From NCBI RefSeq assembly GCF_964194155.1, contig NC_135907.1, forward strand, positions 15,872,001 to 15,936,000: a stretch of 64,000 nt of DNA. The letters are read 5' to 3'. The notes under the pieces were generated by a model. It was given only the letters and a program-made list of their open reading frames with translations, was not told the DNA's origin and searched no databases. A program made the translations under genes and the position numbers. Source of the stretch: Cetorhinus maximus (Eukaryota). Positions 12,510 through 47,757 of this stretch are shown here, piece after piece. The first letter of the stretch is position 1. The number at the start of each line of letters is the position of its first letter.

Positions 12510-13539
12510 TGTTAATGGTTCTACTACCTTTAACCCCGCCTCCTGGCAGCAAGGTTCTAGCTTTGAATCTCAACTGATAAAAATTTCCAATCATGAAAGG
12601 AACATAATCTGTTAGACCAACTAGAGACTGGGCCCTAAAATAAAAGATCCTCTCTCCCAGGAGTCCCCAACCTAACAAAATCATCTTAGGATAGAACATA
12701 CATTGAGGTATATTATAACAATGAACAACTTTAGAGTTTCCCAATATCAGCTCTTAGGATTCTACCTTAAAGACCTCTAATATTGTTACTTTATATGTCG
12801 GCTCTCAAGAGAATGTAGATGAGACCACAGCTATTCTATACTTAGTTAATCTATTTTTATTATTCAAACCAATTATGGATTGCAGCTTATACATTAGGGT
12901 TAGAGATGGTAACTAAAGATAATCATAACGCGCCAATAATGTTTCAAAATTGATGCAATTTTTAGATCCACTGTAATAAACAGTTTTATTTTGATAAACA
13001 AATATTAATTGAAGACATTTATACTCATAATCTAGCATAATTTTCCTTTAATCTGGAGTGCCTTGGTCTCAAATATAGGGAGGCCCAGCTAGGCCAAGAC
13101 TTACCAATGCCTGTATAGATGGCAGACTGACTGCCTAAGCGAATTGTCAAACATTTTAAAGAGACCTTCAGCAGAGAATAAAAATGACTTCCATTATGCA
13201 TTGTTCTTTGTCTTTTGACAAAAACACTTAGGAAAAAACAAGTTCTTTGACAAAAACAAGGTTATCAATTAAGCTTCTCAATTTAAGAATTTGTGTGGGC
13301 TATGTGCATCAGACATTACTGTCTGAAAATACAGTTGGATTGTCTAGTTAGCTGCCTCCCAAGGACTTCACTTCTGAATACCTGAGTTTTCCATAGGAAC
13401 TGCCTTTCTGGATATGATCCATTTGCTATGGCAGTGTTTTAACTATGGCAATGTTTTTACTTATGTTGATCCGCATTCTTAATTATTTGTCTGTAATTAG
13501 CATCTTAAATTTTCCATTAATGGTGTTAGATTTTTTACA
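12510..13539. mobile_element. Solo LTR (~1030 bp)
   Basis: TG...CA termini with 4-bp TSD TTAA (12506-12509, 13540-13543). The homologous site upstream of copy 2 (~4815-4835) is empty. Confidence 0.75.
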
Positions 13540-13874
13540 TTAATACCTCCAATCAAATGTCAAAATAAGGTTTGAGAGTATATTCTGTTGTCACTTTTTA
13601 GGTAGAGATACTTTCAGAGTTTGCATTTGTGAATACTTAAGAAGTATTTGGATGTGCACTTGCAATGCCATAATATACAAGGCTATGGGCCTAGTGCTGA
13701 AAAATGGGATTGGAATAGTTAGGTACTTGTTTGAGCAGCGCAGACTCGATGGGCCGAAGGGCCTTTTTCTGTGCTGTAGACCTCTATGACTCTATGACTC
13801 TAAGATGGTCAAAGATCAATCAGCAATTCCATCATGGTTGAATTGTCAATCAATGGAGCCCCTCCTTTAACATT

Positions 13875-14026
13875 CTGATTGGCTCCTGTGTCCCAAATCC
13901 TACCCTGCGCTGATTGGAACCCAATTGGACCTGGCAGCTGTTTGATTGGTTAACAAGAATGGCTGCCCATCATTGATGTTGTCACTTCCTGCTTAATAAA
14001 ATGAGGCTGTGGCCCTGGAGTATAAA
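13875..14026 (+). promoter_or_regulatory. Ferritin copy 3 promoter
   Basis: CTGATTGG 13875-13882 and 13910-13917, CCAATTGG 13921-13928, E-box CAGCTG 13935-13940, TTGATTGG 13942-13949, TATAAA 14021-14026. Confidence 0.75.
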
Positions 14027-14133
14027 TCTAAGTCTGATAAGTGAAGTTTTAGGTATTGTTGGTGTTCATCCTAAATTTGTGATAGGGTTTGTGTTTTGGT
14101 GAAAATTAAGGAAAAGAAGCCTGCATTTACAAA

Positions 14134-16709
<2,576 letters not shown>

Positions 16710-18392
16710 CGTGGCATCTAGTATCTGATTGTAGATTACTTTGCTTGTATGTGATGTTTCCAACTAGACCTGGACAATTTGGCTTTCTCCAGGAAGAAAG
16801 AACTTGTAGCAAAGAATTAAATTGCTGTGCCACATGAATTGAAATAAAAATCTTTTGATTGACAATTGCTTTAATTTCTACCTTGGAGCTAATGGTAGCT
16901 TGGAGTACTGCCCGGCTTACCTAGACACAACATTGATAGACCGTGGGTCTTCCACTGGGCTCCCCTTCAGATCGGGAGGGTGGTGAACAATTGTCCGTGT
17001 CTCCTTGATGGGCTCCTCCTGAGCTGACATCATCAACAAGAGTGCTCATAGGCTGGGATGCAGTCCTACAATGGAAATGTGAGGCAGGAATGTGGGGGTG
17101 TGACAAATCTTCATTGGACACCAATGTTCCATGTAGCCTTCAAAGACCAGAGGGAAATCAATTCAATTGAAGCAAGCTTCCCCCCTTCCCACCACCTTTT
17201 CCTCCAGACCGCCTCAGACTCAAATGTATTCTCATTAGCACTGAGTTCTCTATGATCATGCAATTGTCTTTTAAATGAGTAGAGATTTTTTTTGGTGAAA
17301 GGAAGATTAAGATTCCATCTGTTCTGGTTTCCCCCAAAAAAACATCCTAGATGCCATATCATCTACAACTTTTAAGTTGTTTTCTCTCTGGGAATTAGTC
17401 AATCCAAATAGGCCCCCCATAGCCTGGAGTTTAGACAAATGTGTGCAGCAAAGGACATGATGTTATTTCCTGCTGAAGGAACAAAATGTGTCCTTTATTG
17501 TGATTCCAAGATACCCAAAATGAGAATTCAGGAACACATCCAATTCTGTTCACACCACTACTGCTGTCGCTTTCAAATCAAAGTTTGTGGTCAGCCACAC
17601 AATTGGCTAGAAGGCTCAGTGTAGGCCATTTAGCCCCTTGACTTTGTCAAAACTGAGATCGATAGATTTCTATGTATTAAAAACATTGAGCGATATGGGG
17701 GATAATGCAGGAAAATAGTGTTGAAGTAGAAGATGAGCCATGATCTCATTGAATGGCAGAGCAGGCTTGAAGAGCTGAATGGCCTGCTCCTGCTCCTATT
17801 TATGTTCTTGTTCTGCCATTGAATTAATTCATAGCTGATCTGTATCTTAACTTATGCCCATCCTGGTTCCACACGGCTTAATGTCCCTGCCTAACAAGAC
17901 ACTACCCATTTTAACTTTGAAATGTCATTGGTGTCAGCCTCAGTTTTTTTGAGTTGGGTGTTGGAGCGCACAGAGCTCCAGATTTCCACTGTCCTCTATG
18001 TGTAGAACTGTTTTCTGGACATCAACCCTGACTGTTCAAGCTCTAAGGTTCTGCCCCTTGTTCAGGACTCTGGGAAATAGGGTGAAACTATCAAATCCTT
18101 TAATCATCTTAAACACTTCAATATAAGATCACCCCTTAATCTTAATTTGAGGGATTACAATGTATTTGGAAGCAAGAGGAACTGGAGCAAAAGCAGTATG
18201 GAGTAGTGGTGGGAGGGTAGGGTAGTGGTCACAGAACTGACCATCCCCGGTGATCACAATCTCACCGATTACTCGTCTATTGTCAATTTGAAACTTGTTT
18301 GTAATTAGAAATGTGGACCCAGTAAACATGGTGTGCAGTTCTGTTGGGTCTGAAGACCCAGAGACACTAATCCAACCACTCATACTCAACGA

Positions 18393-18635
18393 TGGAAAAG
18401 GTACTCATTCCATTGCTTTAAAAGCCTTGCAGAGCATAATGATACAAATTTTAAATGAGGGTCAGTCTGGGTGTATAGATCCAATAGACACTGGCTCAGG
18501 CAACGTGCATTTTAACCCAGCAATAATGGAGAATTTGTGATATCGAGATGAACTTCATGTTTATAAACAGCTTTTTGGTGCCAAAAATCATGATTTACTT
18601 TTACTGCCAGTTCCAGAATAATCAGATATTGTGCT
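18393..18635 (-). pseudogene. Collapsed ferritin gene remnant in the palindrome spacer
   Basis: Collinear short matches to ferritin exons 1, 3 and 4 on the minus strand, including AGACTGACCCTCAT 14/14 at 18455-18468 and 21/26 at 18473-18498. Confidence 0.7.
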
Positions 18636-18805
18636 TCGTTGAGTGTGAGTGGTTGGATTAGAGTCTCTGGGTCTTTAGACCCAACAGAACTGCACAAAAT
18701 GTTTACTGGGTCCACATTTCTAATTACGAACAAGCTTCAAATTGACAATAGATGAGTAATCGGTGAGATTGTGATCACCGGGGATCGTCGGTTCTGTGAC
18801 CACTA

Positions 18806-19680
18806 TCCCACCCACCACCCACCCCACTCCCCCCCACCCCACTCCTCCCCCCCCCCCCCCACCCCACTCTCCTCCCCCCCCACCCCACTCTCCTCCCCCA
18901 CCCCCCCACCCCACTCTCCTCCCCCCCACCCCACTCTCCTCCCCCCCCCCCCACTCTCTCCTCCCCCCCCACTCTCCTCCCCCCCCCCCACTCTCCTCCC
19001 CCCCCCCCACCCCACTCTCCTCCCCCACCCCACCCCACTCTCCTCCCCCCCCCCACCCCACTCTCCTCCCCCCCCCACCCCACTCTCCTCCCCCCCACCA
19101 CCCCACTCTCCTCCCCCCCACCCACCCCACTCTCCTCCCCCCCCCACCCCACTCTCCTCCCCCCCCCACCCCACTCTCCTCCCCCCCCCACCCCACTCTC
19201 CCCCCCCACCCAACACCCCACTCCTCCCCCCACCCCCACCCCCACCCCACTCCACTCTTCCCCCCACCCCACCCCACTCTTTCCCCCCACCCCCACCCCA
19301 CTCTTTCCCCCCACCCCCACCCCACTCTTTCCCCCCACCCCCACCCCACTCTTTCCCCCCACCCCCACCCCACTCTTTCCCCCCACCCCCACCCCACTCT
19401 TTCCCCCCACCCCCACCCCACTCTTTCCCCCCACCCCCACCCCACTCTTTCCCCCCACCCCCACCCCACTCTTTCCCCCCACCCCCACCCCACTCTTTCC
19501 CCCCACCCCCACCCCACTCTTTCCCCCCACCCCCACCCCACTCTTTCCCCCCACCCCCACCCCACTCTTTCCCCCCACCCCCACCCCACTCTTTCCCCCC
19601 ACCCCCACCCCACTCTTTCCCCCCACCCCCACCCCACTCTCTCCCCCCCCACCCCCCACCCCACTCCACTCCCCTACCCC
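18806..19680. repeat. C-rich minisatellite (G-quadruplex/i-motif prone)
   Basis: Irregular CCCCACTCTCCTC(C)n units, then ~15 near-perfect 24-bp units ACCCCACTCTTTCCCCCCACCCCC. Confidence 0.95.
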
Positions 19681-21163
19681 ACTACTCCATACTGCTTTTG
19701 CTCCAGTTCCTCTTGCTTCCAAATACATTGTACTTCCTCAAGTTAAGATTAAGGTGTGATCTTATATTGAGGTGTTGATGATTAAAGGATTTGATAGTTT
19801 CACCCTATTTCCCTGAGTCCTGAACAAGGGGGCAGAACCTTAGAGCTTGGACAGTCAGGGTTGATGTCCAGAAAACAGTTCTACACAGAGGGAAGAGGAA
19901 ATCTGGAGCTCTCTGTGCTCCAACACCCAACTCAAAAAACTGAGGCTGAGAGAAATGACATTTCAAAGTTAAAATGGGTAGTGTCTTGTTAGGCAGGGAT
20001 ATTAAGTCTTGTGGAACCAGGATGGGCATAAGTTAAGATACAGATCAGCTATGAATTAATTCAATGGCAGAACAAGAACATAAATAGGAGCAGGCCATTC
20101 AGCTCTTCAAGCCTGCTCCGCCATTCAATGAGATCTTGGTTCATCTTCTACTTCAACACTATTTTCCTGCATTATCCCCATATTACTCAATGTTATTAAT
20201 ACATAGAAATCTATCGATCTCAGTCTTGACAAAGTCAAGGGGCTAAATGGCCTACACTGAGCCTTCTAGCCAATTGTGTGGCAGATCACAAACTTTGATT
20301 TGAAAGCGACAGCAGTAGTGGTGCGAACAGAATTGGATGTGTTCCTGAATTCTCATTTTGGGTATCCTAGAATCACAAAAGGACACATTTTGTTCCTTCA
20401 GCAGGAAATAACATCATGTCCTTTGCTGCACCCATTTGTCTAAACTCCAGTATTGGGTTGTTGGAGGTCTATTTAGATTGGCTAATTCCCATCTTAAAAG
20501 TTTAGATGATATGGCATCTAGGATGTGCTTTTTTTTTTGGGAAACTACAACTGGAACAGATGGAATCTTAATCTTCCTTTCGCCAAAAAAAAAATCTCTA
20601 CTCATTTAAAAGACAATTGCATGATCATAGAGAACTCAGTGCTAATGAGAATACATTTGAGTCTGAGGCTGTCTGGAGGAAAAGGTCGTGGGAAGGGGGA
20701 AGCTTGCTTTAATTGAATTAATTTCCCTCTAGTCTTTGAAGGCTACATGGAACATTGGTGTCCAATGAAGGTTTGTCACATCCCACACTCCTTCCTCACA
20801 TTTCCATTGTAGGACTGCATCCCAGCCTATGAGAACTCTTGTTGATGATGTCAGCTCAGGAGGAGCACATCAAGGAGACATGGACAATTGTTCACCACCC
20901 TCCCGATCTGAAGGGGAGCCCAGTGGAAGACCCACGGTCTATCAATGTTGTGTCTAGGTAAGCCAGGCAGTACTTCAAGCTACCATTAGCTCCAAGGTAG
21001 AAATTAAAGCAATTGTCAATCAAAAGATTTTTATTTCAATTCATGTGGCACAGCAATTCAATGCTACAAGTTCTTTCTTCCTGGAGAAAGCCAAATTGTC
21101 CAGGTCTAGTTGGAAACATCACATACAAGCAAAGTAATCTACAATCAGATACTAGATGCCACG

Positions 21164-23744
<2,581 letters not shown>

Positions 23745-23851
23745 TTTGTAAATGCAGGCTTCTTTTCCTTAATTTTCACCAAAACACAAACCCTATCACA
23801 AATTTAGGATGAACACCAACAATACCTAAAACTTCACTTATCAGACTTAGA

Positions 23852-24003
23852 TTTATACTCCAGGGCCACAGCCTCATTTTATTAAGCAGGAAGTGACAAC
23901 ATCAATGATGGGCAGCCATTCTTGTTAACCAATCAAACAGCTGCCAGGTCCAATTGGGTTCCAATCAGCGCAGGGTAGGATTTGGGACACAGGAGCCAAT
24001 CAG
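23852..24003 (-). promoter_or_regulatory. Ferritin copy 4 promoter
   Basis: Reverse complement of the copy 3 promoter. TATAAA at 23857-23852, with the CCAAT boxes and CAGCTG retained. Confidence 0.75.
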
Positions 24004-25528
24004 AATGTTAAAGGAGGGGCTCCATTGATTGACAATTCAACCATGATGGAATTGCTGATTGATCTTTGACCATCTTAGAGTCATAGAGTCATAGAGGTCT
24101 ACAGCACAGAAAAAGGCCCTTCGGCCCATCGAGTCTGCGCTGCTCAAACAAGTACCTAACTATTCCAATCCCATTTTTCAGCACTAGGCCCATAGCCTTG
24201 TATGTTATGGCATCGCAAGTGCACATCCAAATACTTCTTAAGTATTCACAAATGCAAACTCTGAAAGTATCTCTACCTAAAAAGTGACAACAGAATATAC
24301 TCTCAAACCTTATTTTGACATTTGATTGGAGGTATTAATGTACAAAAACTAACACCATTAATGGAAAATTTAAGATGCTAATTACAGACAAATAATTAAG
24401 AATGCGGATCAACATAAGTAAAATGATTGCCATAGTTAAAACACTGCCATAGCAAATAGATCATATCCAGAAAGGCAGTTCCTATGGAAAACTCAGCGAT
24501 TTGAATTGACCCGCCCGCGGAAAATGGCGGCGCGGAGCCAATTGGTCAGCTCTGTGACCGTCCCTGCCCGTTCCCCCGAGCCTGCCCAACGTGGGAACAA
24601 TTCAGGTCTTTGTATCAGACTCCAGATCAGCATCCGAAGTGGGGAGGTAGATTGCAGTAGGGGAGTAGTTTTGGTTGAAGGGCCCCGAGTCTCGCTGGGT
24701 TACGGTTTCAATCTCAGCCGCCATTTTCTGCGGCCAAGCATGAATAATAACTGCACACATCCAAAACAGACAGGCCCAAAAAGACCATCAACCATCAAGC
24801 CTGTCCCACACTCATGATGTCCGGAGCATGAGTGTGGGCAACACCGGAAAAGCCGGCATTTATTGCCCATCCCTAATTGCGTTTGCGAAGGTGACGGTGA
24901 ACAAATTGCTGTCTTCGTTTCAGCAAAATACCCTGAAGTAAGTCCTGTTCTTTCAGCACGTACTTAATAAAAACCAAAAACGCTGCTGCAAAATCTATGA
25001 AGGGAAAACTCACTTGACCCCCACCTTCCCGTCCTCTCCTGCACATAGGGCAGGTTTTTTTGCTCCTATATGGGGGACAAGGGAGGGGAAGGTACAAATT
25101 ACATGCTGCTGGCACCATCCCCACCATGTTCCTGGTGAGGGTATTGGCAACAGAAGGGCTGGAAGGCCTGCAAGCTGGTAGCCTGGTTCCCGCACCATGG
25201 TGGGGTAGGGGGCTGCAGGATGACTGGAAAATTCCAGTAGCTCTTCCAGTGCAGATCCCGCCTTGTGAAAATGGCCCAGCGTCGAGATGTTGCTGGCAAA
25301 CCAGCAACGCCATTTATGTCCGTGCTCCCCTGGACAACTAGCTCCATAACATAACCCTTATGCTACCACCCATGATGGGCTCATAAGTGCACTTCCCCTT
25401 TCCTTGGACTTTTATCTTGGGTCCAGTTTCTTGTTTTCCATCATTTTCTATCCTGGGACTAATCCAATTGAATCCAGAAAGTGACAGGTGGTCTTTTGTT
25501 TAGCATAACTGGGTGCTTCTACATAATT

Positions 25529-25913: not shown

Positions 25914-26063
25914 CTCAAGTTCGCTACTACCAAGAGACTACACAGCTAATTATTGGCTAGTCGCACAATGTTACTTCAAGTAATTCAATGCAGGCGGAGA
26001 GGAGACAATAAGAAACACAAATTCAAGCAGAGGAACTAACCTCTCCATTTATTTTCTCAATAG

Positions 26064-27419
26064 ACCGTCAACCAGATTCACGTGCACCTAATTGGGGCCT
26101 TTCTCACCTTCTTTATTGGGAACCTCTACTTCTGGCTCCAGGTGGCACTCACCTACAAGATACAACCAAGGCATGGAGGGAAGTGGATTGGCCCTGTCCG
26201 GATAATCTGCTGCCTTGTATGCACAGTCTGCCTCATCCTGTGTATCCTTTAGCCAGAAGGCAATATATTGATTAACATTATCAACGCGCACAAAGACTGT
26301 GTGACTGCATCACCTTCGTTCAAATCCGACCCAGGATAAGAAGGGATGGTGAAAAGAATGGTTCCAGGGAGGAACGTCGGTTACATTGATAGCTTGGAGA
26401 AGCTGGGGCTGTTTTCCTTGGAGAAGAGAAGGCTGAGAGGAGATTTGATAGAGGTGTTCAAAATCATGAGGGGTTTGGACAGTAGATGGGGAGAAACTGG
26501 TGGAAGGATTGAGAATGAGAGGGCACAGATTGAAGTTGGTTGGTGAAAGAAGCAATGGAGACGTGAGGAGAAACTTTTTCACACAGCGAGTGGTTAGGAT
26601 GTGGAATGCGCTGCCTCAGAGCGTGGTGGAGGCAGGTTCCATCACGTTAGGGAATTGAAGAGAGAATTGGATTATTATCTGAAAAGAAAGAATGTGCAGG
26701 GTTACGAGGAATGGCACTAGTTGCATTGCTCATTCGGAGAGCCAGCACCTCATGATGGGCAGAAAGGCCTCCTTCTGTGCTGTGCTGTGATTTTGTGAAG
26801 ATCCCATTCTCTGAAGAGGTTCAGTGAGCCAGAAAGACATTTCTTCTCAGGGACCCGATCAAATTGGCACTCTCAGCTCCCTCGGGCGCTTTAGTGTTGG
26901 TAGGCCCCGGAGACCAGAAGGCCTCAGGCTCTATTCCTGCTTTTCGGTGGTTCGGCAGGTACTGACACTTTGATTGTCCTCTGGGCCCTGGGACTAGATG
27001 GAGAATCCGGGGTCAGGTGGGGCGGAGTAAAATCAACCTGAATTCTTGCTCACTATGGAATGTCAGCCAGTTGGGATAGATACTGGAGGGGAGCCAGCAT
27101 TTGGGGAATAGTCACTTCATGATAAGTTAGGAGACTCAATAAGACAGATCAGGAGAGAAAGTCCTTCACCTCATAGGCGGTATTCTGGAACTAAACCACC
27201 ATCTTTGAGCCTGTTTCCTTGACCATTCCACCAGTGGTGCTGCTGCACAATTTGAAGAGAAGAACAGCTGCGGCGATATGTGAATGGATTGCTGGGATGG
27301 TTCTCCTCCTGCTCTTTGGCCTCTTTGCTGTGGATTTTCGGCACATTAACGGTCAATACTTCCACGTCATGCTGGACAAGACCAGAATTCAAAACTCAAC
27401 CACCACATTGGAGTTATAG
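26064..27419 (+). pseudogene. TMEM150B: Partial inverted duplicate of TMEM150B (last two coding exons only)
   Basis: Exons 26064-26241 and 27235-27419 match 47642-47465 and 46471-46287. The breakpoint at 25949 lies in intron 4, so exons 1-4 are missing. Confidence 0.9.
26350..26790 (+). mobile_element. CR1-type LINE 3' fragment (mirror copy ~46915-47350, minus)
   Basis: [27 protein letters not shown] motif. Confidence 0.85.
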
Positions 27420-28019
27420 CAGGAGCCATATTGAACTGCAATGCCTATTCTTTTTTAAGAGAAAAATAACATTTTATAGAGTTTGACTGGTCTCTTTTGC
27501 TGCTCTGTGGGGCTGGGAAGACTGTGGGATGATTCATCACACGCCCGTGACGTGGCCTGGGATGTTTTATTGCATTAAAGGTGCTACAGGAATGCAGGTT
27601 GTTGTAGTGTAAAAATGAGTGCAAGGCATCGGTCAATCCCAGTCATTTGAGGGAGCTCAGAATTAGGGGAAAAAGGAAATCACCGTTATGATCAATATCC
27701 TTCTGCTTGTTTTTACCCAGCTTGATTAATCTGTGTTCACCAAATCTAGTCATCTCTGTATGGCATTAAGATAGATGTCACCATGATCCATTGAAGCCAG
27801 GAACAAGCTGGATGGGCTGAGTGGTCTCCTCCTGTTCCTACCAATCAACTCATGGAATTGTTATGGCGAACTGACTGTGCCGGACCATTTCAGGGCACTG
27901 GATTAACAGCAATACAGATACAAAGGCATTTCTATGCCACCTTTTTATAATCTCAGGAGGTGCCAAAGTGCTTTAGAACCATTGAAGTACTTGCACTCAC
28001 TGTTGGAATGGTAGGAAGT

Positions 28020-28440
28020 ACATCAACAACAACTTAGATTTCTATACCACCTGGAATTTAGTGGAACAGTCCAAGGCGCTTCACAGAAGAAAAATAAAAT
28101 TTGACACCGAGCCACCTAAGGAGATATTGGGGCAACTTACCGAAAGTTTAGACAATGAAGTAGGCTTTAAACTGAGTCTAATGGAGGAGGGCAAGACAGG
28201 AAGAGAGGTTTCGAGAGGGAATTGCAGAGTTTAGGGACTTGGCCATTCGAGGCACGGCCGCCAATGTCGGAAAGATAACAATCGGGAATGAGCAAAATGC
28301 CGGATTGGGAGGAGTGCAGAGATCTCGGAGGGTTGTAGAGCTGGAGGAGATGACGGAGAGTGGGAGAGGCGAGGCTGGTAAAAACAAGCATGAGGATTTT
28401 TAAAATGAAAGAGGTGCCGTTGTGGGTTAGCGAACATAGG
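28020..28440 (-). mobile_element. L2/CR1-clade LINE 3' fragment (mirror ~45330-45750; related 58775-59160)
   Basis: ORF remnant FKILMLVF...LLQLYNPPRSLHSS...KLCNSL. Confidence 0.65.
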
Positions 28441-29102
28441 GATGATGGATAAACAACAATCAATTTGTCCACAGCAAGCTCCCACTAACAATGTGATAAT
28501 GACCAGGTAAGCTGTCTATGTGATGTTGATTAAGGGATCAATATTGACCAGGTCACTGGGGAGAACCCCCTCTGCCCTTCTTCGAAGCAGTGCTGTGATA
28601 TCTTTTACGTCTGCCTGTGAAGGCAAACGGGGTCTCGCGATGTTAGCATCTCATCTGAAAGATGCCACCTCAGCACTGCAACTGGAATGTTATCTTGTGT
28701 AGAGATACAGACAACAGCACAGGAAACCAGACGGGAGGGTCATTGAGCCCACAGCGTGAGAACTTGATGAGAGAGAGAGAGAGAGACACTGCCGGAAAGC
28801 TTGATTAATGTCATACCGTCACTGAGCTGGGTTCATCGGTCTTCTGCTTGTTACCTCACATCCTTCTTAATATCAAAGTTCAATGAGTCCTTTTATCCAG
28901 TTCATTGGAGTTAGCAACACACTCCATTTATTGACATTTAGTAATATGAGCAGATATATAGAGAGCAATTAAGTTCAATGATGTTTGTTAGCAGTATGAC
29001 TTCTTCTAATGATGTGAAGACTGGCCGTGTGCCTGTACATTAGCAATCGTCACCCAGACACCCCACCCCTCCCACAGGTTAATCCACAATATCGAGCAGT
29101 GT

Positions 29103-29470
29103 GGGGAGGTAGTGGCATAATGGTATTGTCACTGGACTAGTATTCCAGCTAACCCACCATCATGCTCAGGGGACCCTGGGTTCAAACCTCACTACTGAAA
29201 ATGGTGAAATTTAAATTCAATAAAAATCTGGAATTAAAAGTCTAATGATGAAACCATTGCTGATTTTTGTAAAAACCCATCTGGTTCCCTAATGTCCTTT
29301 AGGGAAAGAAATCTGCTGTCCTTACCTGGTCTGGCCTACATGTGACTCTAGACCCAAAGCAATGTGGTTGACTCTTAAAACAAAACGCCCTCTAAATGAG
29401 GGCAGGTAGGGGTGGGCAATAAATGCTGGCCTAGACAGCGATGCCCACATCCCATGAATGAATTAAAAAA
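29103..29470 (+). mobile_element. tRNA-derived SINE (mirror 44320-44685, minus)
   Basis: Same family as 11837-12330. Confidence 0.75.
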
Positions 29471-29939
29471 AGTAGAGGTACTAATATTATACTTAGCAAA
29501 GATCACGTTCTCTAGGAGAGGGAAATTTGTGTATAATTATATTACATACAAGATTCTAAAACAAAGGCAAGTAAGTATGTTTTCAAAGAAAAGAAACTGG
29601 AAAAGAGGTTGATCATTGTATTTATTTAATTTATATGTTGTCCAATGGCTTGTGATGAATTCTGATGAACAACGGAAACTGCATGATTTGTACATTGACA
29701 GACTGGAATTTAAACCCAGCCATGGAATCAGAGGCTTGGTCTTATTTCAGCAGAACGTGGCCTTTCGTAGAAGAATGCAGTATAGAAGGAGGCCATTTGG
29801 CCCACTGGGTCTGCACTAGCTTTTTTGAAGAGGATCTCAGTCCTACTGCCAGGCTCTTTCCCCATAATCTTGCAATTTTTTTTCCGCTTCAAGTTCGGTC
29901 CCACCTTCTGCTGGGAAATGATCATAAGATCATTAGTTC

Positions 29940-30670
29940 ATAAAAAATAGGAGCAGGAGGAAGCCATTCAGCCCCTCGAGCCTGCTTCACCATTCAATGA
30001 GACCATGGCTGATCTGATTGTGGCCTCAGCTCCACCTTCCTGCCTGTTCCCCCATACCCTTGATTCCTCTGTCAATCAAAAATCTGTCTCACTCATCCTT
30101 AATGTATTCAGCCTCCATTGCTCTCTGGGGTGAGAATTCCAAAGATTATCAAGCCTCTGAGAGAAGAAATTCCTTCTCATCTCAGTCTTAAATTGGAGAC
30201 CCCTTATCTTTAAATTGTGACCCCTAGTTCTAGATCCCTCCATGAGAGGAATCATCCTCTCAGCATCTACCCTGTCAAGCCCCCTCAGAACCTTATATGT
30301 TTCAATAAAATCACCTCTCATTTTTCTAAACTCCAATGAGTACAGGCCCAACCTGCTCAACCTTTCCCATAAGATAACCCCTTCATCCCACGAATCAGCC
30401 TGGTGAACCTTCTCTGAATTGCTTCCAATTCAAGTATATCCTTTCTTAAGTAAGGAGACCAAAACTGTACACAGCACTCCAGGTGTGGTCTCACCAATGT
30501 CCTCTACAGTTGTAGCTAGACTTCCCTAATTTTATACTCCCATCCCCCTTGCAATAATGGCCAATATTCCATTTACCTTCCTAATTAATTGCTGTACCTG
30601 CATGTTGACATTTTGTGATTCATGTACAAAGACATCCAGATCCCTCTGAACTGCAGCTTTTTGCAGTCTT
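29940..30670 (-). mobile_element. CR1-type LINE 3' fragment (mirror ~43135-43860, plus)
   Basis: [35 protein letters not shown]...RTRGHNLKIRG. Confidence 0.85.
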
Positions 30671-30692
30671 AGGATGACCAAACATTTAGTAA

Positions 30693-30839
30693 CTCAGTTC
30701 TGCCGAAGGGTCGTGAAGGCTCGAAACGTTAACTGATTTCTTCTCCACCGATGCTGCCAGACCTGCTGAGTTTTTCCAGGTAATTCTGTTTTTGTTTTGG
30801 ATTTCCAGAATCCGCAGTAGCTTTTAGCTTTTTGTTTTT
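30693..30839 (+). mobile_element. 147-bp hammerhead-motif element with 9-bp TSD
   Basis: Flanked by ATTTAGTAA (30684-30692, 30840-30848). Absent from the mirror arm, which has a single TTACTAAAT at ~43112-43120. Confidence 0.85.
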
Positions 30840-31369
30840 ATTTAGTAAGTGGTGCCTAACAGGGCTACACCACAGGGAAGGGAGAGCATAGTCTTCACCT
30901 TCAACCATCTCCAGTAGTAAGGCTGAGACTGGGTTATCACTGCCGTGGGAAATCACTCATGCTTAACCAACCCAGTAGTATCCAGTCACATGTATTTCTT
31001 TACCGTGTCTCAGGGAAGAAATGATTTTTTCCCAAAGACTTTTTCCAAAATTGAGTTCCGATGTCAACATGATCTGTTTTTTTCTGATTGTAGTGTTTTA
31101 TTTTACACATTTATATGGTGGAACTGCTTTGTGTAGGGATGAATTACCTGTCTCCTTTGTATCCTGACATTCAAGCCCTCGGAGCCCTAGCGACTCAGGT
31201 CTTTCTGCACAATTTCAAATTTAAAAAGACTGTTCTTAGCGCTGTTGTCTCATTGGCGAATAAACATTAATTCTGTATTGACAAATTGAGATATCTGCAA
31301 ATGAACAGCAACGTGGACTTAAAGTATTCTGTAATAAAGAGAATCGATTCCAGTTCAGTTTTTTGACCA

Positions 31370-31970
31370 GCCACATAAACACAATGGCTACAAAAGCAGG
31401 CCTGGCTCTGGTTATACTGTGAGTGACTCACCTCCTGACTCTCCAGAGCCCTTCCACCATCAGCAAGAGTTAAGTCAAGAGTGTGATGGAGTACTCTCCA
31501 CTTGCCTAGATGAGTGCAGTTCTAACACTCAAGAAGCTCAGCATCGCCCAGGCTAAGGCAGCCCCCTTGATCGACACCCCATCCAGCACCTTAAATATAC
31601 ACCCCTCCACCATCAGACTACCGTGGCTACAGAGTACAAGATGCACAGCAGCAACTTGTCAAAGCTGCTTTGACATCACTTTCTAGACTTGCGACCTTTC
31701 TCATCTAGAAGATGAAGGGCAGCAAATGCAAGGGAAAACCACCACCTCCGAGCCCCTTGTCCCATCCCCAAGTCACTCACCATCCTGACTTGGAACCATA
31801 TCAGTGTTACCTCACTGTCGCCGGGTCAAAATCCTGGAACTCACTCCCTAACAGCACAGTGGGTGTACCTACACCACATGGACTGCAGTGGTTCAGGAAG
31901 GCGGCTCACCACCACCTTCTCAAGGGCAATAAATGCTGGCCTTGCTAGTGATGCCCACAGCCCAAGATTA
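31370..31970 (+). mobile_element. LINE 3' fragment (mirror ~42000-42590)
   Basis: Same family as 3220-3950. Confidence 0.7.
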
Positions 31971-33249
31971 AGTTTTAAAAAAAGGACAAGGGGTGTAACA
32001 TCAAAATTAGAGTTAGGCTATTCAGGGGTGATGTCAGGAAGCACTTCACAAAAAGGGTGGAGGAAATTTGGAACTTCCACTCAAACAGTTGCTGAGGCTG
32101 GAGGGTGATCAATGAAAATGTCAAATCTGATATTGATAGATTGAACTTTGGCAAGGTTATTAAGCATTATGGAACTAAGATGGGTAAATTGAGTTAAGAT
32201 ACAGAGGTGCTGTAATCTAATTAAATGACAAAGCAGATACGAGGGGCTGAATGGCCTCCTCCAGTGCCTATGCCCCTTCCTATGAGTCCTGGGTATCACG
32301 TGAACACACCCCTACATAGTACACAAAGTCAAAGGTTTGACAAGTCCTAACATAGCTCACTAGCACAGGAGCACACTTTAGTCATCCTCTATAATAAGCC
32401 TACAAAATAGAGTTGTATTGTAGGGTGGCTGAGTTGTGCTGTTAATGATTGAGTTGATCTGCAGACACTTCTTGACTGGAAACATTAAGTTTATTTACAA
32501 TATACTTAGCAGCAACTACACGTGTGCTTTCAACTCCACCTCCACCATTAGACTGACTGCTGAGGTGGCCCGCACTACTCTCCTATTGGTTACTACAGAT
32601 CCTGTGATCTTCCTTAACAAGTATTATTCTTAAAGATACATTGCACACTAAATAAAACCATAATTACTACAAGTCGTCAAGCTTCCCGACATATTCCAAG
32701 AGAACTCACCACATGGCCTTTCACCTCCAACTCCTGCCCCCACATTCCTGCCATTGATCACCTGATCTAGCCATCCTTGTGGTGCCCCATTTCCCACGCC
32801 AATTGGAAAGCAAATAGACTCTCCCAAGGATCTTCCCCAGATCTCCAATAGTTTGTGTAACTAAATGAAAGTGTTCAAAGAAAATGATTTTGTTTGGACC
32901 ATGATTTATCTCCCAGTTTTGCCAACAGCAACATCCAAGCGATTAACATTTAATTCTTGGAAACCCGCGGGGTAAACCTGGAGAGTTGGTAAGCCCACCC
33001 TTCACTATGGCACAGCATCATTGCCAGTACCCGCAGGACATCTGTTTGATGTAATCTGCAATAATTCAAATTGTTCTTTTTTTAAAAATTAAGGGCCATA
33101 ACTTCCGATGGAGTGGCAATTGAGTCGGATTGAGCCTGAAAATCCAGCTGATCCTATCACGCCCGACCTAAAGACTGATTCAGAGAGCAGGGGGGGTCTT
33201 TATAATTCTACCCTTGACCGACTTCCTATTCGCTCTGCCATGTGACATG

Positions 33250-34040: not shown

Positions 34041-34699
34041 GCATATACTATGGCACAGCTGATGGTATGTGCCGAGCTGCCCAAATCCCAGAGGGAAACT
34101 TGAAACAGCTGCCAAAATGGTTTTGGCAATTTGTACAGTATGAGGAGAGGTTCTGAAATCAGGAAACGATGTCCCCAACTACTTGTGATGATTTTATAGT
34201 AAACTAAACTTTCATTAAAAGAATAAGGGGAAAGAAACATAATTACACTTAAACACAAGGATGGCTTTACACAGTAAACAGTGCTTTAAAACAGTTCCAC
34301 AAGTTCTTAACTCCGCTACCCGCAGAGCTAACCGTCCCCTTTTCTGTTCAGCAACTATCCTTATAGATTCGAAAATCTTTAGAATTCCAGTAATTTTTAC
34401 CACACAGTGCCTTTTCCCTTGGGACCACTCAGTTTCCATTCAGCCTCCCTCATCCCACGAGGAGTGTAAAATCCAGTCCATTTACTCTGTTTCCCTCTCC
34501 ACAGATGCTGCCTGATCTGCTGACTATTTCCAGCATTTACGTTCTTGGTTTCAGATTTCCAACATCCGCCATATTTTGCTTTTGTCGTTAAAACAGGCTG
34601 TTCACATAATTGTTAACATTAGATAATGATGTAGAAAAATTCAACCAAAACTTGTGGTAATATAAATTAAAGCCTGTAGCCAGGAACTCTTTATATATT

Positions 34700-35609
34700 A
34701 GCCAATCTAAATAGGCCTCCAACAACCCAATACTGAAGTTTAGACAAACGCGTACAGCAAAGGACATTATGTTATTTCCTGAAGGAACAAAATGTGTCCT
34801 TTTTTCTGATTCTAAGATACCCAAAGTGAGAATTCAGGAACACATCCAATTCTGTTCACACCACTACTGCTGTCGCTTTCAAATCGAAGTGTGTGATCTA
34901 CCACACAATTAGCTTGCAGGACTAGAAGGCTCAGTGTAGGCCACTTAGCCCCTCGACCTTCTCAAGACTGAGATTGATAGATTTCTATGTATTACAAACA
35001 TTGAGCGATACGGGGATAATGCAGGAAAATAGTGTTGAAGTAGAAGATGAGCCATGATCTCATTGAATGGCGGAGCAGGCTTGAAGAGCTGAATGGCCTA
35101 CTCCTGCTCCTATTTATGTTCCTATTCTGCCATTGAATTAATTTGTAGCTGATCTGTATATTAACTTATGCCATCCTGGTTCCACAAGGCTTAATATCCC
35201 TGCCTAACAAGACACTACCCATTTTAACTTTGAAATGTCATTGGTGTCAGCCTCAGTTTTTTTGAGTTGGGTGTTGGAGCACAGAGAGCTCCAGATTTCC
35301 ACTGCCCTCTATGTGTAGAACTGTTTTCTGGACATCAACCCTGACTGTCCAAGCTCTAAGGTTCTGCCCCCTTGGTCAGGACTCAAGGAAATAGGGTGAA
35401 ACTATCAAATCCTTTAATCATCATAAACGCCTCAATATAAGATCACCCCTTAATCTTAACTTGAGGGATTACAATGTATTTGGAAGCAAGAGGAACTGGA
35501 GCAAAAGCAGTATGGACTAGTGGTGGGGGGGTGGGGTAGTGGTCACAGAACTGACCATCCCCGGTGATCACAATCTCACCGATTACTCATCTATTGTCAA
35601 TTTGAAGCT
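34700..35609 (+). repeat. Copy of the ferritin 3'-flank block placed upstream of copy 5 (direct repeat with ~39225-40079)
   Basis: Matches ~17400-18298, ~39225-40079 and the reverse complement of the copy 4 flank. It joins the promoter-side flank at ~35618. Confidence 0.9.
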
Positions 35610-35731
35610 TTTTTCAAGCCTTTTTCTGTGCTGTAGACCTCTATGACTCTATGACTCTAAGATGATCAATGATCAATCAGCAATTTCATCATGGTTGAAT
35701 TGTCAATCAATAGAGCCCCTCCTTTAACATT

Positions 35732-35882
35732 CTGATTGGCTCCTGTGTCCCAAATCCGACCCTGCGCTGATTGGAACCCAATTGGACCTGGCAGCTGTTT
35801 GATTGGTTAACAAGGTGGCTGCCCATCATTGATGTTGTCACTTCCTGCTTAATAAAATGAGGCTGTGGCTCTGGAGTATAAA
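35732..35882 (+). promoter_or_regulatory. Ferritin copy 5 promoter
   Basis: Same CCAAT/E-box array. TATAAA at 35877-35882. Confidence 0.75.
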
Positions 35883-35989
35883 TCTAAGTCTGTTAAGTGA
35901 AGTTTTAGGTATTGTTGGTGTTCATCCTAAATTTGTGATAGGGTTTGTGTTTTGGTGAAAATTAAGGAAAAGAAGCCTGTATTTACAAA

Positions 35990-38538
<2,549 letters not shown>

Positions 38539-40798
38539 CGTGGCATCTAGTATCTGATTGTAGATTACTTTGCTTGTATGTGATGTTTCCAACTAGACCT
38601 GGACAATTTGGCTTTCTCCAGGAAGAAAGAACTTGTAGTATTGAATTGCTGTGCCACATGAATTGAAATAAAAATCTTTTGATTGACAATTGCTTTAATT
38701 TCTACCTTGGAGCTAATGGTAGCTTGAAGTACTGCCTGGCTTACCTAGACACAACATTGATAGACTGTGGGTCTTCCACTGGGCTCCCCTTCAGATCGGG
38801 AGGGTGGTGAACAATTGTCCATGTCTCCTTGATGGGCTCCTCCTGAGCTGACATCATCAACAAGAGTTCTCTTAGGTTGGGATGCAGTCCTACAATGGAA
38901 ATGTGAGGCAGGAATGTTGGGGTGTGACAAACCTTCATTGGACACCAATGTTCCATGTAGCCTTCAAAAACCAGAGGGAAATCAATTCAATTAAAGCAAG
39001 CTCCCCATTCCCACCACCTTTTCCTCCAGACAGCCTCAGTGCTAATGAGAATACATTTGAGTCTAAGCTCTCTATGATCATGCAATTGTCTTTTAAATGA
39101 GCAGAGATTTTTTTTTGGTGAAAGGAAGATTAAGATTCCATCTTTTCTAGTTTCCCCCAAAAAAACACATCCTAGATGCCATATCATCTACAACTTTTAA
39201 GTTGTTTTCTATCTGGGAATTAGTCAATCCAAATAGGCCCCCCATAGCCTGGAGTTTAGACAAACGTTTGCAGCAAAGGACATGATGTTATTTCCTGCTG
39301 AAGCAACAAAATGTGATTCTCAGATACCCAAAATGAGAATTCAGGAACACATCCAATTCTGTTCTCACCACTACTGCTGTCACTTTCAAATCAAAGTTTG
39401 TGGTCAGCCACACAATTGGCTAGAAGGCTCAGTGTAGGCCATTTAGCCCCTTGACTTTGTCAAGACTGAGATTGATAGATTTCTATGTATTAATAACATT
39501 GAGTGATATGGGGGATAATGCAGGAAAATAGTGTTGAAGTAGAAGATGAACCATGATCTCATTGAATGGCGGAGCAGACTTGAAGAGCTGAATGGCCTAC
39601 TCCTGCTCCTATTTATGTTCTTGTTCTGCCATTGAATTAATTCATAGCTGATCTGTATCTTATGCCCATCCTGGTTCCACAAGGCTTAATAGCCCTGCCT
39701 ACCAAGACACTACCCATTTTAACTTTGAAATGTCATTGGTGTCAGCCTCAGTTTTTTTGAGTTGGGTGTTGGAGCACAGGGAGCTCCAGATTTCCACTGT
39801 CCTATATGTGTAGAACTGTTTTCTGGACATCAACCCTGACTGTCCAAGCTCTAAGGTTCTGCCCCCTTGTTCAGGACTCATGGAAATAGGGCAAAACTAT
39901 CAAACCCTTTAATCATCTTAAACACCTCAATATAACATCACCCCTTAATCTTAACTTGAAGTACAATGTATTTGGGAGCAGGAGGAGTATGGAGTAGTAG
40001 TGGGGTAGTGGTCACAGAACTGACCATCCCCGGAGATCCCGATCTCTCCGATTACTCATCTATTGTCAATTTGAAGCTTGTTCGTAATTAGAAATGTGGA
40101 CCCAGTAAACGTTTTGTGCAGTTCTGTTGGGTCTGAAGACCCAGAGACACTAATCCAACCACTCACACTCAACAAAGTACAATATCTGATTACTCCAAGC
40201 TCCAGGGCACCTTCCCACGGGTAATTACTTTGCACTGGTAACCATCTGAAAATTGCAATGTAAATCGCAAACTTCAGATGGTTCCAACTATATTACATCA
40301 ACAGTTAGCCAGAAAAAGTTCGAAGAATTAAAATCACTTCCAGTTTCTGGATAATTATTGTACAGACCCACACCCACTCCCCCCAAAGGGATACCCCTCG
40401 AATCCCAAGCCCCCAGGAGACTCCTCCCACCCCCTAACTACTCCCCCCACCCCCGATAGGACTCCTCATCCACACGATTCCCCCCCTCCATGGGACCTCC
40501 TCCCTCCCCCTGGGACTCCCACAACCCCCTCCACTGTGGGACTCACCCACCCCACCTCCACCAAGGCCTGACCCAACCCAACCCAGCCACCCCACCCCTC
40601 AAATCCTACCCACTTACCTTAAGTGCACTTTCCTTGTCAAAGACCTTAAAACTTGGCTGGACCTTTAACCTTACCTGGTTTACAGCAGCTGGTGCTGTAA
40701 AAAAGGGGGCGTGGTTTACTTACCTTCGCCTCTACAGCCCTCGACGCTAGGCCCGGGGACGCGCTGCACTGCCCAGATCTCGCCTGGCCTGAGTCGGA

Positions 40799-43700
40799 AG
40801 GTCGAGCGTGATAAGATCAGCTGGATTTTCAGGCTCAATCCGACTCAATTGCCACTCTATCAGAAGTTATGGCACTTAATTTTTAAAAAAGAACAATTTG
40901 AATAATTGCAGATTACATCAATCAGATGTCCTGCGGGTACTGGCAATGATGCTGTGCCATAGTGAAGGGTGGGCTTGCCAACTCTCCAGGATTACCCCAG
41001 GGTTTCCAAGAATTAAATGTTAATCGCTTGTATATTGCTGTTGGCAAAACTGGGAGATAAATCATGGTCCAAACAAAATCATTTTCTTTGAACGCTTTCA
41101 TTTAGTTACACAAACTATTGGAGATCTGGGGAAGATCCTTGGGAGAGTCTATTTGCTTTCCAACTGGCGTGGGAAATGGGGCATCACAAGGATGGCTAGA
41201 TCAGGTGATCAATGGCAGGAATGTGGGGGCAGGAGTTGGAGGTGAAAGGTCATGTGATGAGTTCTCTTGGAATATGTCGGGAAGCTTGACGACTTGTAGT
41301 AATTATGGTTTTATTTAGTGTGCAATGTACCTTTAAGAATAATACTGGTTAAGGAAGATCACAGGATCTGTAGTAACCAATAGGAGAGTAGTGCGGGCCA
41401 CCTCAGCAGTCAGTCTAACGGTGGAGTTGGAGTTGAAAGCACACGTGTAGTTGCTGCTAAGTATATTGTAAATAAACTTAATGTTTCCAGTCAAGAAGTG
41501 TCTGCAGATCAACTCAATCATTAACAGCACAACTCAGCCACCCTACAACTCTATTTTGTAGGCTTATTCCAGAGGATGACTAAAGTGTCCTCCTGTGCTA
41601 GTGAGCTATGTTAGGACTTGTCAAACCTTTGACTTTTTGTACTATGTAGGGGTGTGTTCATGTGTTACCCAGGTCTCTTAGGAAGGGGCATAGGCACTGG
41701 AGGAGGCCATTCAGCCCCTCATATCTGCTTTGCCATTTAATTAGATTACAGCAACTCTGTATCTTAATTCAATTTACCCATCTTAGTTCCATAACGCTTA
41801 ATAACCTTGCCAAAGTTCAATCTATCAATATCAGATTTGACATTTTCATTGATCACCCTCCAGCCTCAGCAACTGTTTGAGTGGAAGTTCCAAATTTCCC
41901 CCACCCTTTTTGTGAAGTGCTTCCTGACATCACCCCTGAATAGCCTAACTCTAATATTAATGTTACGCCCCTTGTCCTTTTTTTAAAACTTAATCTTGGG
42001 CTGTGGGCATCACTAGCAAGGCCAGCATTTATTGCCCTTGAGAAGGTGGTGGTGAGCCGCCTTCTTGAACCGCTGCAGTCCATGTGGTGTAGATACACCC
42101 ACTGTGCTGTTAGGGAGGGAGTTCCAGGATTTTGACCCGGCGACAGTGAGGTAACACTGATATGGTTCCAAGTCAGGATGGTGAGTGACTTGGGGATGGG
42201 ATGGGGGGGCTCGGAGGTGGTGGTTTTCCGATGCATTTGCTGCCCTTCATCTTCTAGATGAGAAAGGTTGCAAGTCTAGAAAGTGATGTCAAAGCAGCTT
42301 TGGCAAGTTGCTGCTGTGCATCTTGTACTCTGTAGCCATGGTAGTCTGATGGTGGAGGGAGTGTATGTTTAAGGTGCTGGATGGGGTGTCGATCAAGGGG
42401 GCTGCTTTAACCTGGGTGATGCTAAGCTTCTTGAGTGTTAGAACTGCACTCATCTAGGCAAGTGGAGAGTACTCCATCACACTCTTCACTTCACTCTTGC
42501 TGAGGAGGACTCTGGAGAGTCAGGAGGTGAGTCACTCACAGTATAACCAGAGCCAGGCCTGCTTTTGTAGCCATTGTGTTTATGTGGCTGGTCAAAAAAC
42601 TGAACTGGAATCGATTCTCTTTATTACAGAATACTTTAAGTCCATGTTGCTGTTCATTTGCAGATATCTCAATTTGTCAATACAGAATTAGTGTTTATTC
42701 GCCAATGAGACAACAGCACTAAGAACAGTCTTTTTAAATTTGAAATTGTGCAGAAAGACCTGAGTCGCTAGGGCTCCGAGGGCTTGAATGTCAGAATACA
42801 AAGGAGACAGGTAATTCATCCCTGCGCAAAGCAGTTCCACCATATAAATGTGTAAAATAAAAAACACTACAATCAGAAAAAAAAGATCATGTTGACATCG
42901 GAACTCAATGTTGGAAAAAGTCTTTTGTGGCATAATCATTTCTTCCCTGAGACACGGTAAAGAAATACATGTTACTGGATACTACTGGGTTGGTTAAGCA
43001 TGAGTGATTTCCCACGGCAGTGATAACCCAGTCTCAGCCTTACTACTGGAGATGGTTGAAGGTGAAGACTATGCTCTCCCTTCCCTGTGGTGCGTCCCTG
43101 TCAGGCACCACTTACTAAATGTTTGGTCATCCTAAGACTGCAAAAAGCTGCAGTTCAAAGGGATCTGGATGTCTTTGTACATGAATCACAAAATGTCAAC
43201 ATGCAGGTACAGCAATTAATTAGGAAGGTAAATGGAATATTGGCCATTATTGCAAGGGGGATGGGAGTATAAAATTAGGGAAGTCTAGCTACAACTGTAG
43301 AGGACATTGGTGAGACCACACCTGGAGTGCTGTGTACAGTTTTGGTCTCCTTACTTAAGAAAGGATATACTTGAATTGGAAGCAATTCAGAGAAGGTTCA
43401 CCAGGCTGATTCGTGGGATGAAGGGGTTATCTTATGGGAAAGGTTGAGCAGGTTGGGCCTGTACTCATTGGAGTTTAGAAAAATGAGAGGTGATTTTATT
43501 GAAACATGTAAGATTCTGAGGGGGCTTGACAGGGTAGATGCTGAGAGGATGTTTCCTCTCATGGAGGGATCTAGAACTAGGGGTCACAATTTAAAGATAA
43601 GGGGTCTCCAATTTAAGACTGAGATGAGAAGGAATTTCTTCTCTCAGAGGGTCAATAATCTTTGGAATTCTCTTCCCCAGAGAGCAATGGAGGCTGAATA

Positions 43701-46700: not shown

Positions 46701-47757
46701 TTCTCCATCTAGTCCCAGGGCCCAGAGGACAACCAAAGTGTCAGTACCTGCTGCACCACCGAAAAGCAGGAATAGAGCCTGAGGCCTTCTGGTCTCCGGG
46801 GCCTACCAACACTAAAGCGCCCGAGGGAGCTGAGAGTGCCAATTTGATCGGGTCCCTGAGAAGAAATGTCTTTCTGGCTCACTGAACCTCTTCAGAGAAT
46901 GGGATCTTCACAAAATCACAGCACAGCACAGAAGGAGGCCTTTCTGCCCATCATGAGGTGTTGGCTCTCCGAATGAGCAATGCAACTAGTGCCATTCCTC
47001 GTAACCCTGCACATTCTTTCTTTTCAGATAATAATCCAATTCTCTCTTCAATTCCCTAACGTGATGGAACCTGCCTCCACCACGCTCTGAGGCAGCGCAT
47101 TCCACATCCTAACCACTCGCTGTGTGAAAAAGTTTCTCCTCACGTCTCCATTGCTTCTTTCACCAATTAACTTCAATCTGTGCCCTCTCATTCTCAATCC
47201 TTCCACCAGTTTCTCCCCATCTACTGTCCAAACCCCTCATGATTTTGAACACCTCTATCAAATCTCCTCTCAGCCTTCTCTTCTCCAAGGAAAACAGCCC
47301 CAGCTTCTCCAAGCTATCAATGTAACTGAAGTTCCTCCCTGGAACCATTCTTTTCACCATCCCTTCTTATCCTGGGTCGGATTTGAACGAAGGTGATGCA
47401 GTCACACAGTCTTTGTGCGCGTTGACAATGTTAATCAATATATTGCCTTCTGGCTAAAGGATACACAGGATGAGGCAGACTGTGCATACAAGGCAGCAGA
47501 TTATCCGGACAGGGCCAATCCACTTCCCTCCATGCCTTGGTTGTATCTTGTAGGTGAGTGCCACCTGGAGCCAGAAGTAGAGGTTCCCAATAAAGAAGGT
47601 GAGAAAGGCCCCAATTAGGTGCACGTGAATCTGGTTGACGGTCTATTGAGAAAATAAATGGAGAGGTTAGTTCCTCTGCTTGAATTTGTGTTTCTTATTG
47701 TCTCTTCTCCGCCTGCATTGAATTACTTGAAGTAACATTGTGCGACTAGCCAATAAT
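40799..47757. repeat. Right arm of second large inverted duplication
   Basis: Reverse complement of 25949-33169. Contains the native TMEM150B 3' end. Confidence 0.95.

Follow-up and report, generated by a model that had tools for sequence, protein, structure and literature searches.

What occupies the centre of a palindrome whose two arms each carry a ferritin gene, and how did it come to lie there? The window, that is, the whole 64-kb stretch of DNA analysed here, is part of a tandem array of four-exon ferritin genes in a 4.0-Gb genome, and once 100 kb had been fetched on each side the array was found to hold nine ferritin copies, c0, cA, cB, and cC upstream, followed by c1 to c5. Five of the nine are broken: c0 lacks exons 1 and 2 (only exons 3 and 4 are left), cA lacks exons 2 and 3 (exons 1 and 4 are left, and the promoter is kept), exon 2 is frameshifted in cB and cC, and c1 has a stop inside exon 3. 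Copies 3 and 4 face each other in the palindrome arms (13382-18392 and 24496-18636), which are laid out, together with a related unit, as follows.

13382..18392, plus strand: left palindrome arm, with ferritin copy 3 and its downstream flank (self-BLAST)
14134..16709, plus strand: ferritin copy 3, four exons, 531-nt open CDS (exons and translation)
18636..18822, minus strand: inner right arm, partner of 18206-18392 (92% over 187 bp; stem in the predicted fold)
18823..19660, no strand assigned: C-rich simple-repeat expansion, right arm only (sequence; 861-nt gap in the arm alignment)
19661..24496, minus strand: outer right arm, with ferritin copy 4 at 23744-21164 (self-BLAST and exon mapping)
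35618..40195, plus strand: third copy of the unit, with copy 5 at 35990-38538 (alignment)

Exon 2 of copy 3 matches solved ferritins with an E value of 1e-14. Alignment of the arms over 4989 nt shows 157 substitutions (92 transitions, 65 transversions) and 27 indels; 10 of 164 nt differ where they adjoin the centre, and copies 3 and 4 differ at 58/3038 positions within the genes versus 74/1461 in the flanks. Over the promoter and the start of exon 1 (13782-14181), the two copies are identical (0/399) and the flanks are 4-6% apart, reflecting either recent conversion or strong constraint. The C-rich expansion, about 840 bp long, is built of two unit variants and is G-rich on the minus strand. 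A second, larger palindrome is also present in the window (25946-33169 / 40799-47760, arms 96-99%), and its 7.6-kb centre includes copy 5 together with an incomplete duplicate of the flank of copy 5 (34697-35614). The orientation of copies 3, 4, and 5 (plus, minus, plus) resembles an inverted triplication.

Two more ferritin clusters are found at C30:21.08-21.36 Mb (L022-L041) and C2:191.12-191.15 Mb (L042-L045), along with many intronless copies, and the fetched stretches yielded 51 to 55 copies of each exon. The titles and abstract openings retrieved mention no such ferritin expansion in sharks or rays. All five readable local copies carry SEEK in exon 2 (15490-15636; likewise in c1, c2, c4, and c5); solved H-type ferritins, like almost every copy in the other clusters, show SHEE or SEEE at this site. 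Because SEEK replaces what we take to be the site of the ferroxidase ligand Glu62, the local subfamily, judging from sequence, may be L-like and without ferroxidase activity.

The initial annotation had placed the palindrome centre at 18230-18635. The arms in fact extend to 18392 and 18636, adding 187 bp at 92% identity, and the centre is 18393-18635 (243 bp); it had seemed to start at 18230 because the simple-repeat expansion of the right arm (18823-19660) interrupts the arm alignment. It consists of two parts.

18393..18615, minus strand: unique palindrome centre (spacer), 223 bp; one match in its own genome, spanned by a contig, present in organism B
18616..18635, minus strand: 20-nt flank continuing the right arm, also found downstream of copy 5 (alignment)

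As expected of a fold-back inverted duplication, a single-copy spacer thus lies between inverted copies: the sole genome match of the 223-bp part is itself (very common words were skipped by the search), and genome searches with the whole centre and with its 5' half returned nothing beyond the centre. The flank of copy 5 loses its match where the centre begins, and a high-copy repeat is met about 15 nt further on.

The location of this segment, at a palindrome centre and adjoining a simple repeat, is one that could favour an assembly artefact of a fold-back or garbled long read, a reading that is refuted by contigs and to which we give practically no credence. A 378-nt contig of run X1 spans 18353-18730 with 0 differences from the window, although run X1 is probably the source sample, and this contig is therefore not independent support. 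Sixteen runs of a second species, organism B, from six studies share 0.29-0.31 of sampled words, and the centre is covered in all five of the organism-B runs compared (X5, X10, X14, X19, and X6; four studies), with contigs crossing both of its junctions. The centre is thus not a single-read product, and the search in a related species proposed in the initial annotation recovered it together with its junctions. An artefact is also difficult to reconcile with arms that are 157 substitutions apart, with transitions exceeding transversions. Each of the five runs contains at least two versions of the centre, which are alleles or paralogs, and two gap-free 202-nt contigs of X6 show 9 and 13 differences from the window. 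In X19, one contig departs from the centre at 18481 into, in reverse orientation, the same abundant repeat family that is probably represented at 18509-18543, and in X5 and X19 another version (18640) is missing most of the inner right arm; in organism B, rearrangement of the centre may be continuing.

The initial annotation had described the centre as a whole ferritin gene, from promoter to exon 4, collapsed into collinear words on the minus strand. What is present is a real ferritin remnant with close-set deletions, smaller than claimed, namely, a 65-nt relic of exon 3 (18511-18447) in pieces of 13, 25, and 27 nt, with first a 19-nt and then a 12-nt deletion between them. Read along the minus strand, the components of the centre are as follows.

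18604..18615, minus strand: promoter-like 12-mer, unproven; 11/12, such a match occurring in 201/2000 shuffles
18549..18564, minus strand: exon-1-like 16-mer, unproven; 13/16, p 0.04-0.36
18509..18543, no strand assigned: 35 nt that probably derive from an abundant interspersed repeat and share 3 nt with the exon-3 piece; 28.8 bits on the family profile
18499..18511, minus strand: first retained exon-3 piece; 12/13 to cB, cC, c0, and c2
18474..18498, minus strand: middle exon-3 piece, between the 19-nt and 12-nt deletions; 20/25, such a word arising in 3/500 centre shuffles against the whole gene
18447..18473, minus strand: exon-3 end, followed by what are probably the initial 8 nt of intron 3 (donor site dead); 23/27 to cB
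18396..18429, minus strand: exon-4-like words, borderline; p 0.02-0.15 against exon 4 and 0.06-0.5 against intron 3 plus exon 4

When compared with 100 shuffles, the whole centre beats them for eight of the nine local copies (z 5.3-10.5). The exception is cA (z 0.7), which has promoter, exon 1, and exon 4 and is devoid of exon 3, indicating that exon 3 is the source of the ferritin signal in the centre. For the exon-3 block, the scores are 56-70, as opposed to null maxima of 26-48 (1000 shuffles or 1500 genomic windows). Its pieces match eight local copies at 52-55 of 65 positions, whereas the 47 other copies fetched reach at most 45/65; the remnant is of local origin and, by its sequence, closest to the neighbouring paralogs of the tandem array. 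It mismatches the best single copy at 10/65 positions, and 8/65 if the best letter of any local copy is taken. The reading frame is disabled, with a stop four codons after the exon-3 ATG and no ATG in the ferritin-like frame. On the minus strand, 18512-18390 forms a 41-codon stop-to-stop frame without ATG in which the exon-3 and exon-4-like pieces share one ferritin frame, an arrangement that was spotted post hoc and has a chance of about 1 in 27.

The remnant might have been a cDNA piece of ferritin mRNA that was captured at a break, which would explain the exonic nature of the recognizable pieces. Every recognizable ferritin word is indeed exonic, exon-restricted tests give the lowest p values, and intronless ferritin copies are numerous in the genome; intron bits at about 30% divergence, however, would presumably be undetectable anyway. 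No exon-exon join is found, and the 8 nt that follow exon 3 match intron-3 starts at 5-6/8 positions and the start of exon 4 at 1/8, so that these eight nucleotides lean towards an unspliced donor. Moreover, the remnant is located inside the array that it most resembles, head to tail with copy 4, whereas all nine retrocopies that lie near a fetched parent derive from another cluster. We therefore regard cDNA capture as quite improbable. The 3' end of the remnant is cut by the inversion junction.

Beyond exon 3, the correspondence is much less secure. The words at 18396-18429 are probably exon-4 scraps: the 3' part of the centre gives p 0.02-0.15 against exon 4 alone, 0.06-0.18 once intron 3 and the UTR are included, and 0.15-0.5 against a profile of the local paralogs that was built for power. 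Alternatively, this part would comprise the end of intron 3 and a single exon-4 word. Its assignment to the end of the c0 intron 3 was rejected, since the p value of 0.002-0.013 was obtained in a window narrowed post hoc and becomes 0.05-0.10 against all intron 3 plus exon 4. The 5' part yields p values of 0.04-0.36 for exon 1, 0.11-0.47 for the promoter, and 0.5-0.9 for the whole upstream gene; exon 2 is absent from the centre (p 0.6-0.9 for the 5' part), and the local-paralog profile is matched at chance level (p 0.85-0.92). Three exon-4 words in order arose in 0/2000 shuffles against exon 4 alone but in 177/2000 with intron 3 and the UTR, and the promoter and exon 1 words in 4/2000 but in 167/2000 against the whole upstream gene, the thresholds of these word-order shuffles having been fitted afterwards to the observed words. 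The repeat score of 18543-18509 was reached by 0/300 shuffles (the family was picked post hoc), and unrelated contigs with loose ends pile up on 18509-18543. When donors of the 5' and 3' parts were sought in 557,716 bases, the best scores were 31.5 and 29.0, which fall within the shuffled maxima (28.4-37.0 in 12 shuffles and 26-33 in 20 shuffles, respectively). In L043 and L045, 17/18 positions match across one of the deletion joins, which was dismissed as chance because both matches sit in long text that we take to be LINE-like.

All eight of the words on which the collapsed gene had been built do lie on the minus strand, where and in the order that the initial annotation gave them. The exon-3 13-mer, quoted at 12/13, reaches this value with copy 2 but only 11/13 with copy 3; the exon-4 words are present, and the 17-nt word has no other ungapped match with up to 3 mismatches in the window, whereas the 9-mer has 31 other near-matches. 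In the shuffle tests of collinearity, the exon-3 block stands far above the null, exon 4 is borderline, and exon 1 and the promoter are mostly at chance level. The gene from promoter to exon 4 is consequently reduced to exon 3 as its one certain part, with exon 4 borderline, exon 1 and promoter inseparable from chance, and exon 2 missing. It is improbable that a single germ-line replication event skipped along the whole 2.6-kb ferritin gene in steps of 10-25 nt, leaving a 220-bp digest that runs from promoter to exon 4 in an inversion junction kept across species, so that the centre would be the fossil of a one-step gene collapse. This case shows that collinear chains of 9-16-nt words picked by eye exaggerate homology.

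The reading that we favour, with modest confidence, is that the centre is a deletion-riddled exon-3 relic of an already decayed, unspliced tandem copy, which was left as a single-copy spacer on inverted duplication of the copy-3/copy-4 unit. The donor would have been a broken tandem paralog, possibly 5'-truncated like c0, and most of its mismatches would be older than the divergence of the versions now seen. The decayed copy was probably left as the spacer when the unit was duplicated in inverted orientation, and deletions would have shortened it before or after that inversion, a kind of loss that has been reported for small spacers of palindromes. Because the centre now reads on from copy 4, either a later arm-to-arm crossover would have flipped the spacer, or copy 4 may be the parent. 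The abundance of broken copies in the local array provides a supporting context. In c0, the same repeat family is found in the same sense and ends about 40 nt before exon 3, an order like that of the relic; no c0-specific letters were found in the remnant, and the 5' part has no match in the DNA upstream of c0 (p 0.5-0.8).

The mismatches bear on when this decay took place. With 3-5.5% decay since the inversion, a copy newly made at that event would show at least 8 differences with a probability of 0.0007-0.026. At the six variable sites of the exon-3 block listed for organism B, four changes lead away from ferritin, two swap one mismatch for another, and none restores a ferritin letter. This excess of mismatches, together with the failure of organism B to restore a ferritin letter at the listed sites, makes it likely that most of the decay predates the versions seen. 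The age argument is weakened because arm-to-arm conversion may hide an inversion older than the arms suggest. Both mechanisms offered in the initial annotation can be judged by the same mismatches, with which erosion of an old copy agrees better than one-off template skipping.

The deletions are a difficulty for a decayed pseudogene. Two deletions of at least 10 nt accompany 10 substitutions in the remnant, whereas nine ferritin retrocopies have 2 such deletions per 334 substitutions (4 of 13 intronless copies, more than 20% from any fetched parent, are left out of this background), and local introns have from 0.013 (strict count) to 0.08 (loose count) per substitution. The remnant is thus unusual beside the retrocopies, but less so beside the introns. 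A short block between two gaps of at least 10 nt was observed in 3 of 44 block triplets of the local introns, two of which are probably one event. Three versions followed over 202 nt (the window and two in X6) show about 17 substitution events and no gap; the comparison with the gaps of the remnant gives a Fisher p of 0.16, in which gapped contigs may be missing. These data hint that erosion is not visibly ongoing and that the deletions came in an episode. Both the high deletion density and the putative flip required by the present orientation count against the pseudogene spacer, and the spacer deletions reported for primate palindromes are kilobases long, unlike the 12-19 nt here (PMC8327919, in excerpt).

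Such a density, about 30 times that of the retrocopies, would be accounted for if a single event at the inversion junction had generated the centre, through serial replication slippage or template switching in which the polymerase jumped forward repeatedly along a ferritin gene nearby and took up the repeat and unassigned bits as well, possibly with errors. We consider this a serious rival, possible though doubtful. The centre is located at a rearrangement breakpoint, its skips are forward and collinear, its make-up is a patchwork, overlaps of 2-3 nt (TG, CAC, and AAT; read off the alignments without a null) occur at the joins, and later versions have no new gap. Local templated insertions at inverted-duplication junctions have been described (PMC3907307, in excerpt), as has serial slippage (PMC2583991, in excerpt). 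However, 8-10 mismatches in 65 nt, apparently common to all versions, are excessive for a fresh copy and depart from the near-identity expected of one; local insertions in the reported cases are 4-16 nt long and identical to their template, as far as the excerpts go. For about 70 nt of the 5' part, the 557,716 bases searched contain no donor, and no second fragmented relic occurs among the best 22 windows of the fetched ferritin loci. The scan of these loci for other collapsed relics, comprising 14,164 window scores, gave contiguous exon pieces for all the others among the best 22. An origin as a MITE or Pack-type element with 187-bp terminal repeats was also rejected: all 4 occurrences of the stem sequence lie in the window, and the arms continue for 5 kb.

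The initial annotation had further proposed that the ferritin piece is antisense to ferritin mRNA and forms the loop of a hairpin in copy-3 read-through, and both the orientation and the predicted fold agree with this arrangement. In this fold, 187 bp would pair as a stem and the antisense remnant would lie in a largely unpaired loop, at a predicted minimum free energy of -378 kcal/mol (z -39 versus 20 shuffles). Co-option of the centre as an antisense or hairpin RNA damping ferritin expression, for which its retention in two species might also speak, would nonetheless be very unlikely. Stems, not loops, are what is diced; here the stem is locus-specific flank rather than ferritin, and the ferritin piece is in the loop. 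The longest exact match of the centre to any exon is 14 nt, and the centre is about 1.5 kb beyond the AATAAA of copy 3. Between the species, it differs at 9 and 13 of 202 positions, compared with 3/97 and 3/114 in the left arm, varying as freely as the arm. An Rfam scan of 13000-25000 found no family at threshold (one match, E 0.5, was far below it), and the same interval yielded no iron-responsive element close to copies 3 and 4 at E up to 1. The proposed co-option thus finds no support, and the spacer is likely without function.

Compared with known systems, the centre resembles an unprocessed pseudogene of a tandem array: its nearest matches are the neighbouring paralogs, it lies head to tail with one of these, it is disabled, and it probably retains an intron start. 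It differs in that it is far shorter, has deletions just 25 nt apart, and makes up the entire palindrome centre. Excerpts from PMC8327919 describe primate X palindromes, which likewise have a single-copy centre and gene-bearing arms with genes more alike than flanks, and for which spacer instability and flipping are reported; their arms, however, are tens of kilobases long at >99% identity, as opposed to 5 kb at 97% here. Fold-back inverted duplications likewise have a spacer, itself not duplicated, that separates a segment from its inverted copy (PMC3907307, in excerpt), but their spacers of 766-70,466 bp exceed the 223-243 bp here, and, unlike in the excerpted cases, the centre continues the inverted arm and is fixed in the germ line across species. 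At the spacer-end junction, where 2-8 bp of inverted microhomology would be expected for a fold-back, the arms are 6-8% diverged. As in serial replication slippage, or FoSTeS, several short collinear pieces of a nearby template are present at a junction (PMC2583991, in excerpt), but the pieces here show 12-15% divergence from all extant templates.

The titles and abstract openings retrieved contained no description of this locus or of such a relic. Read as a small example of a pseudogene scrap in this position, it provides a marker with which to date rearrangements in a large ferritin array. If its deletions came in one step, it would be of greater importance, as dense serial skipping, fixed in the germ line, would then be directly readable.
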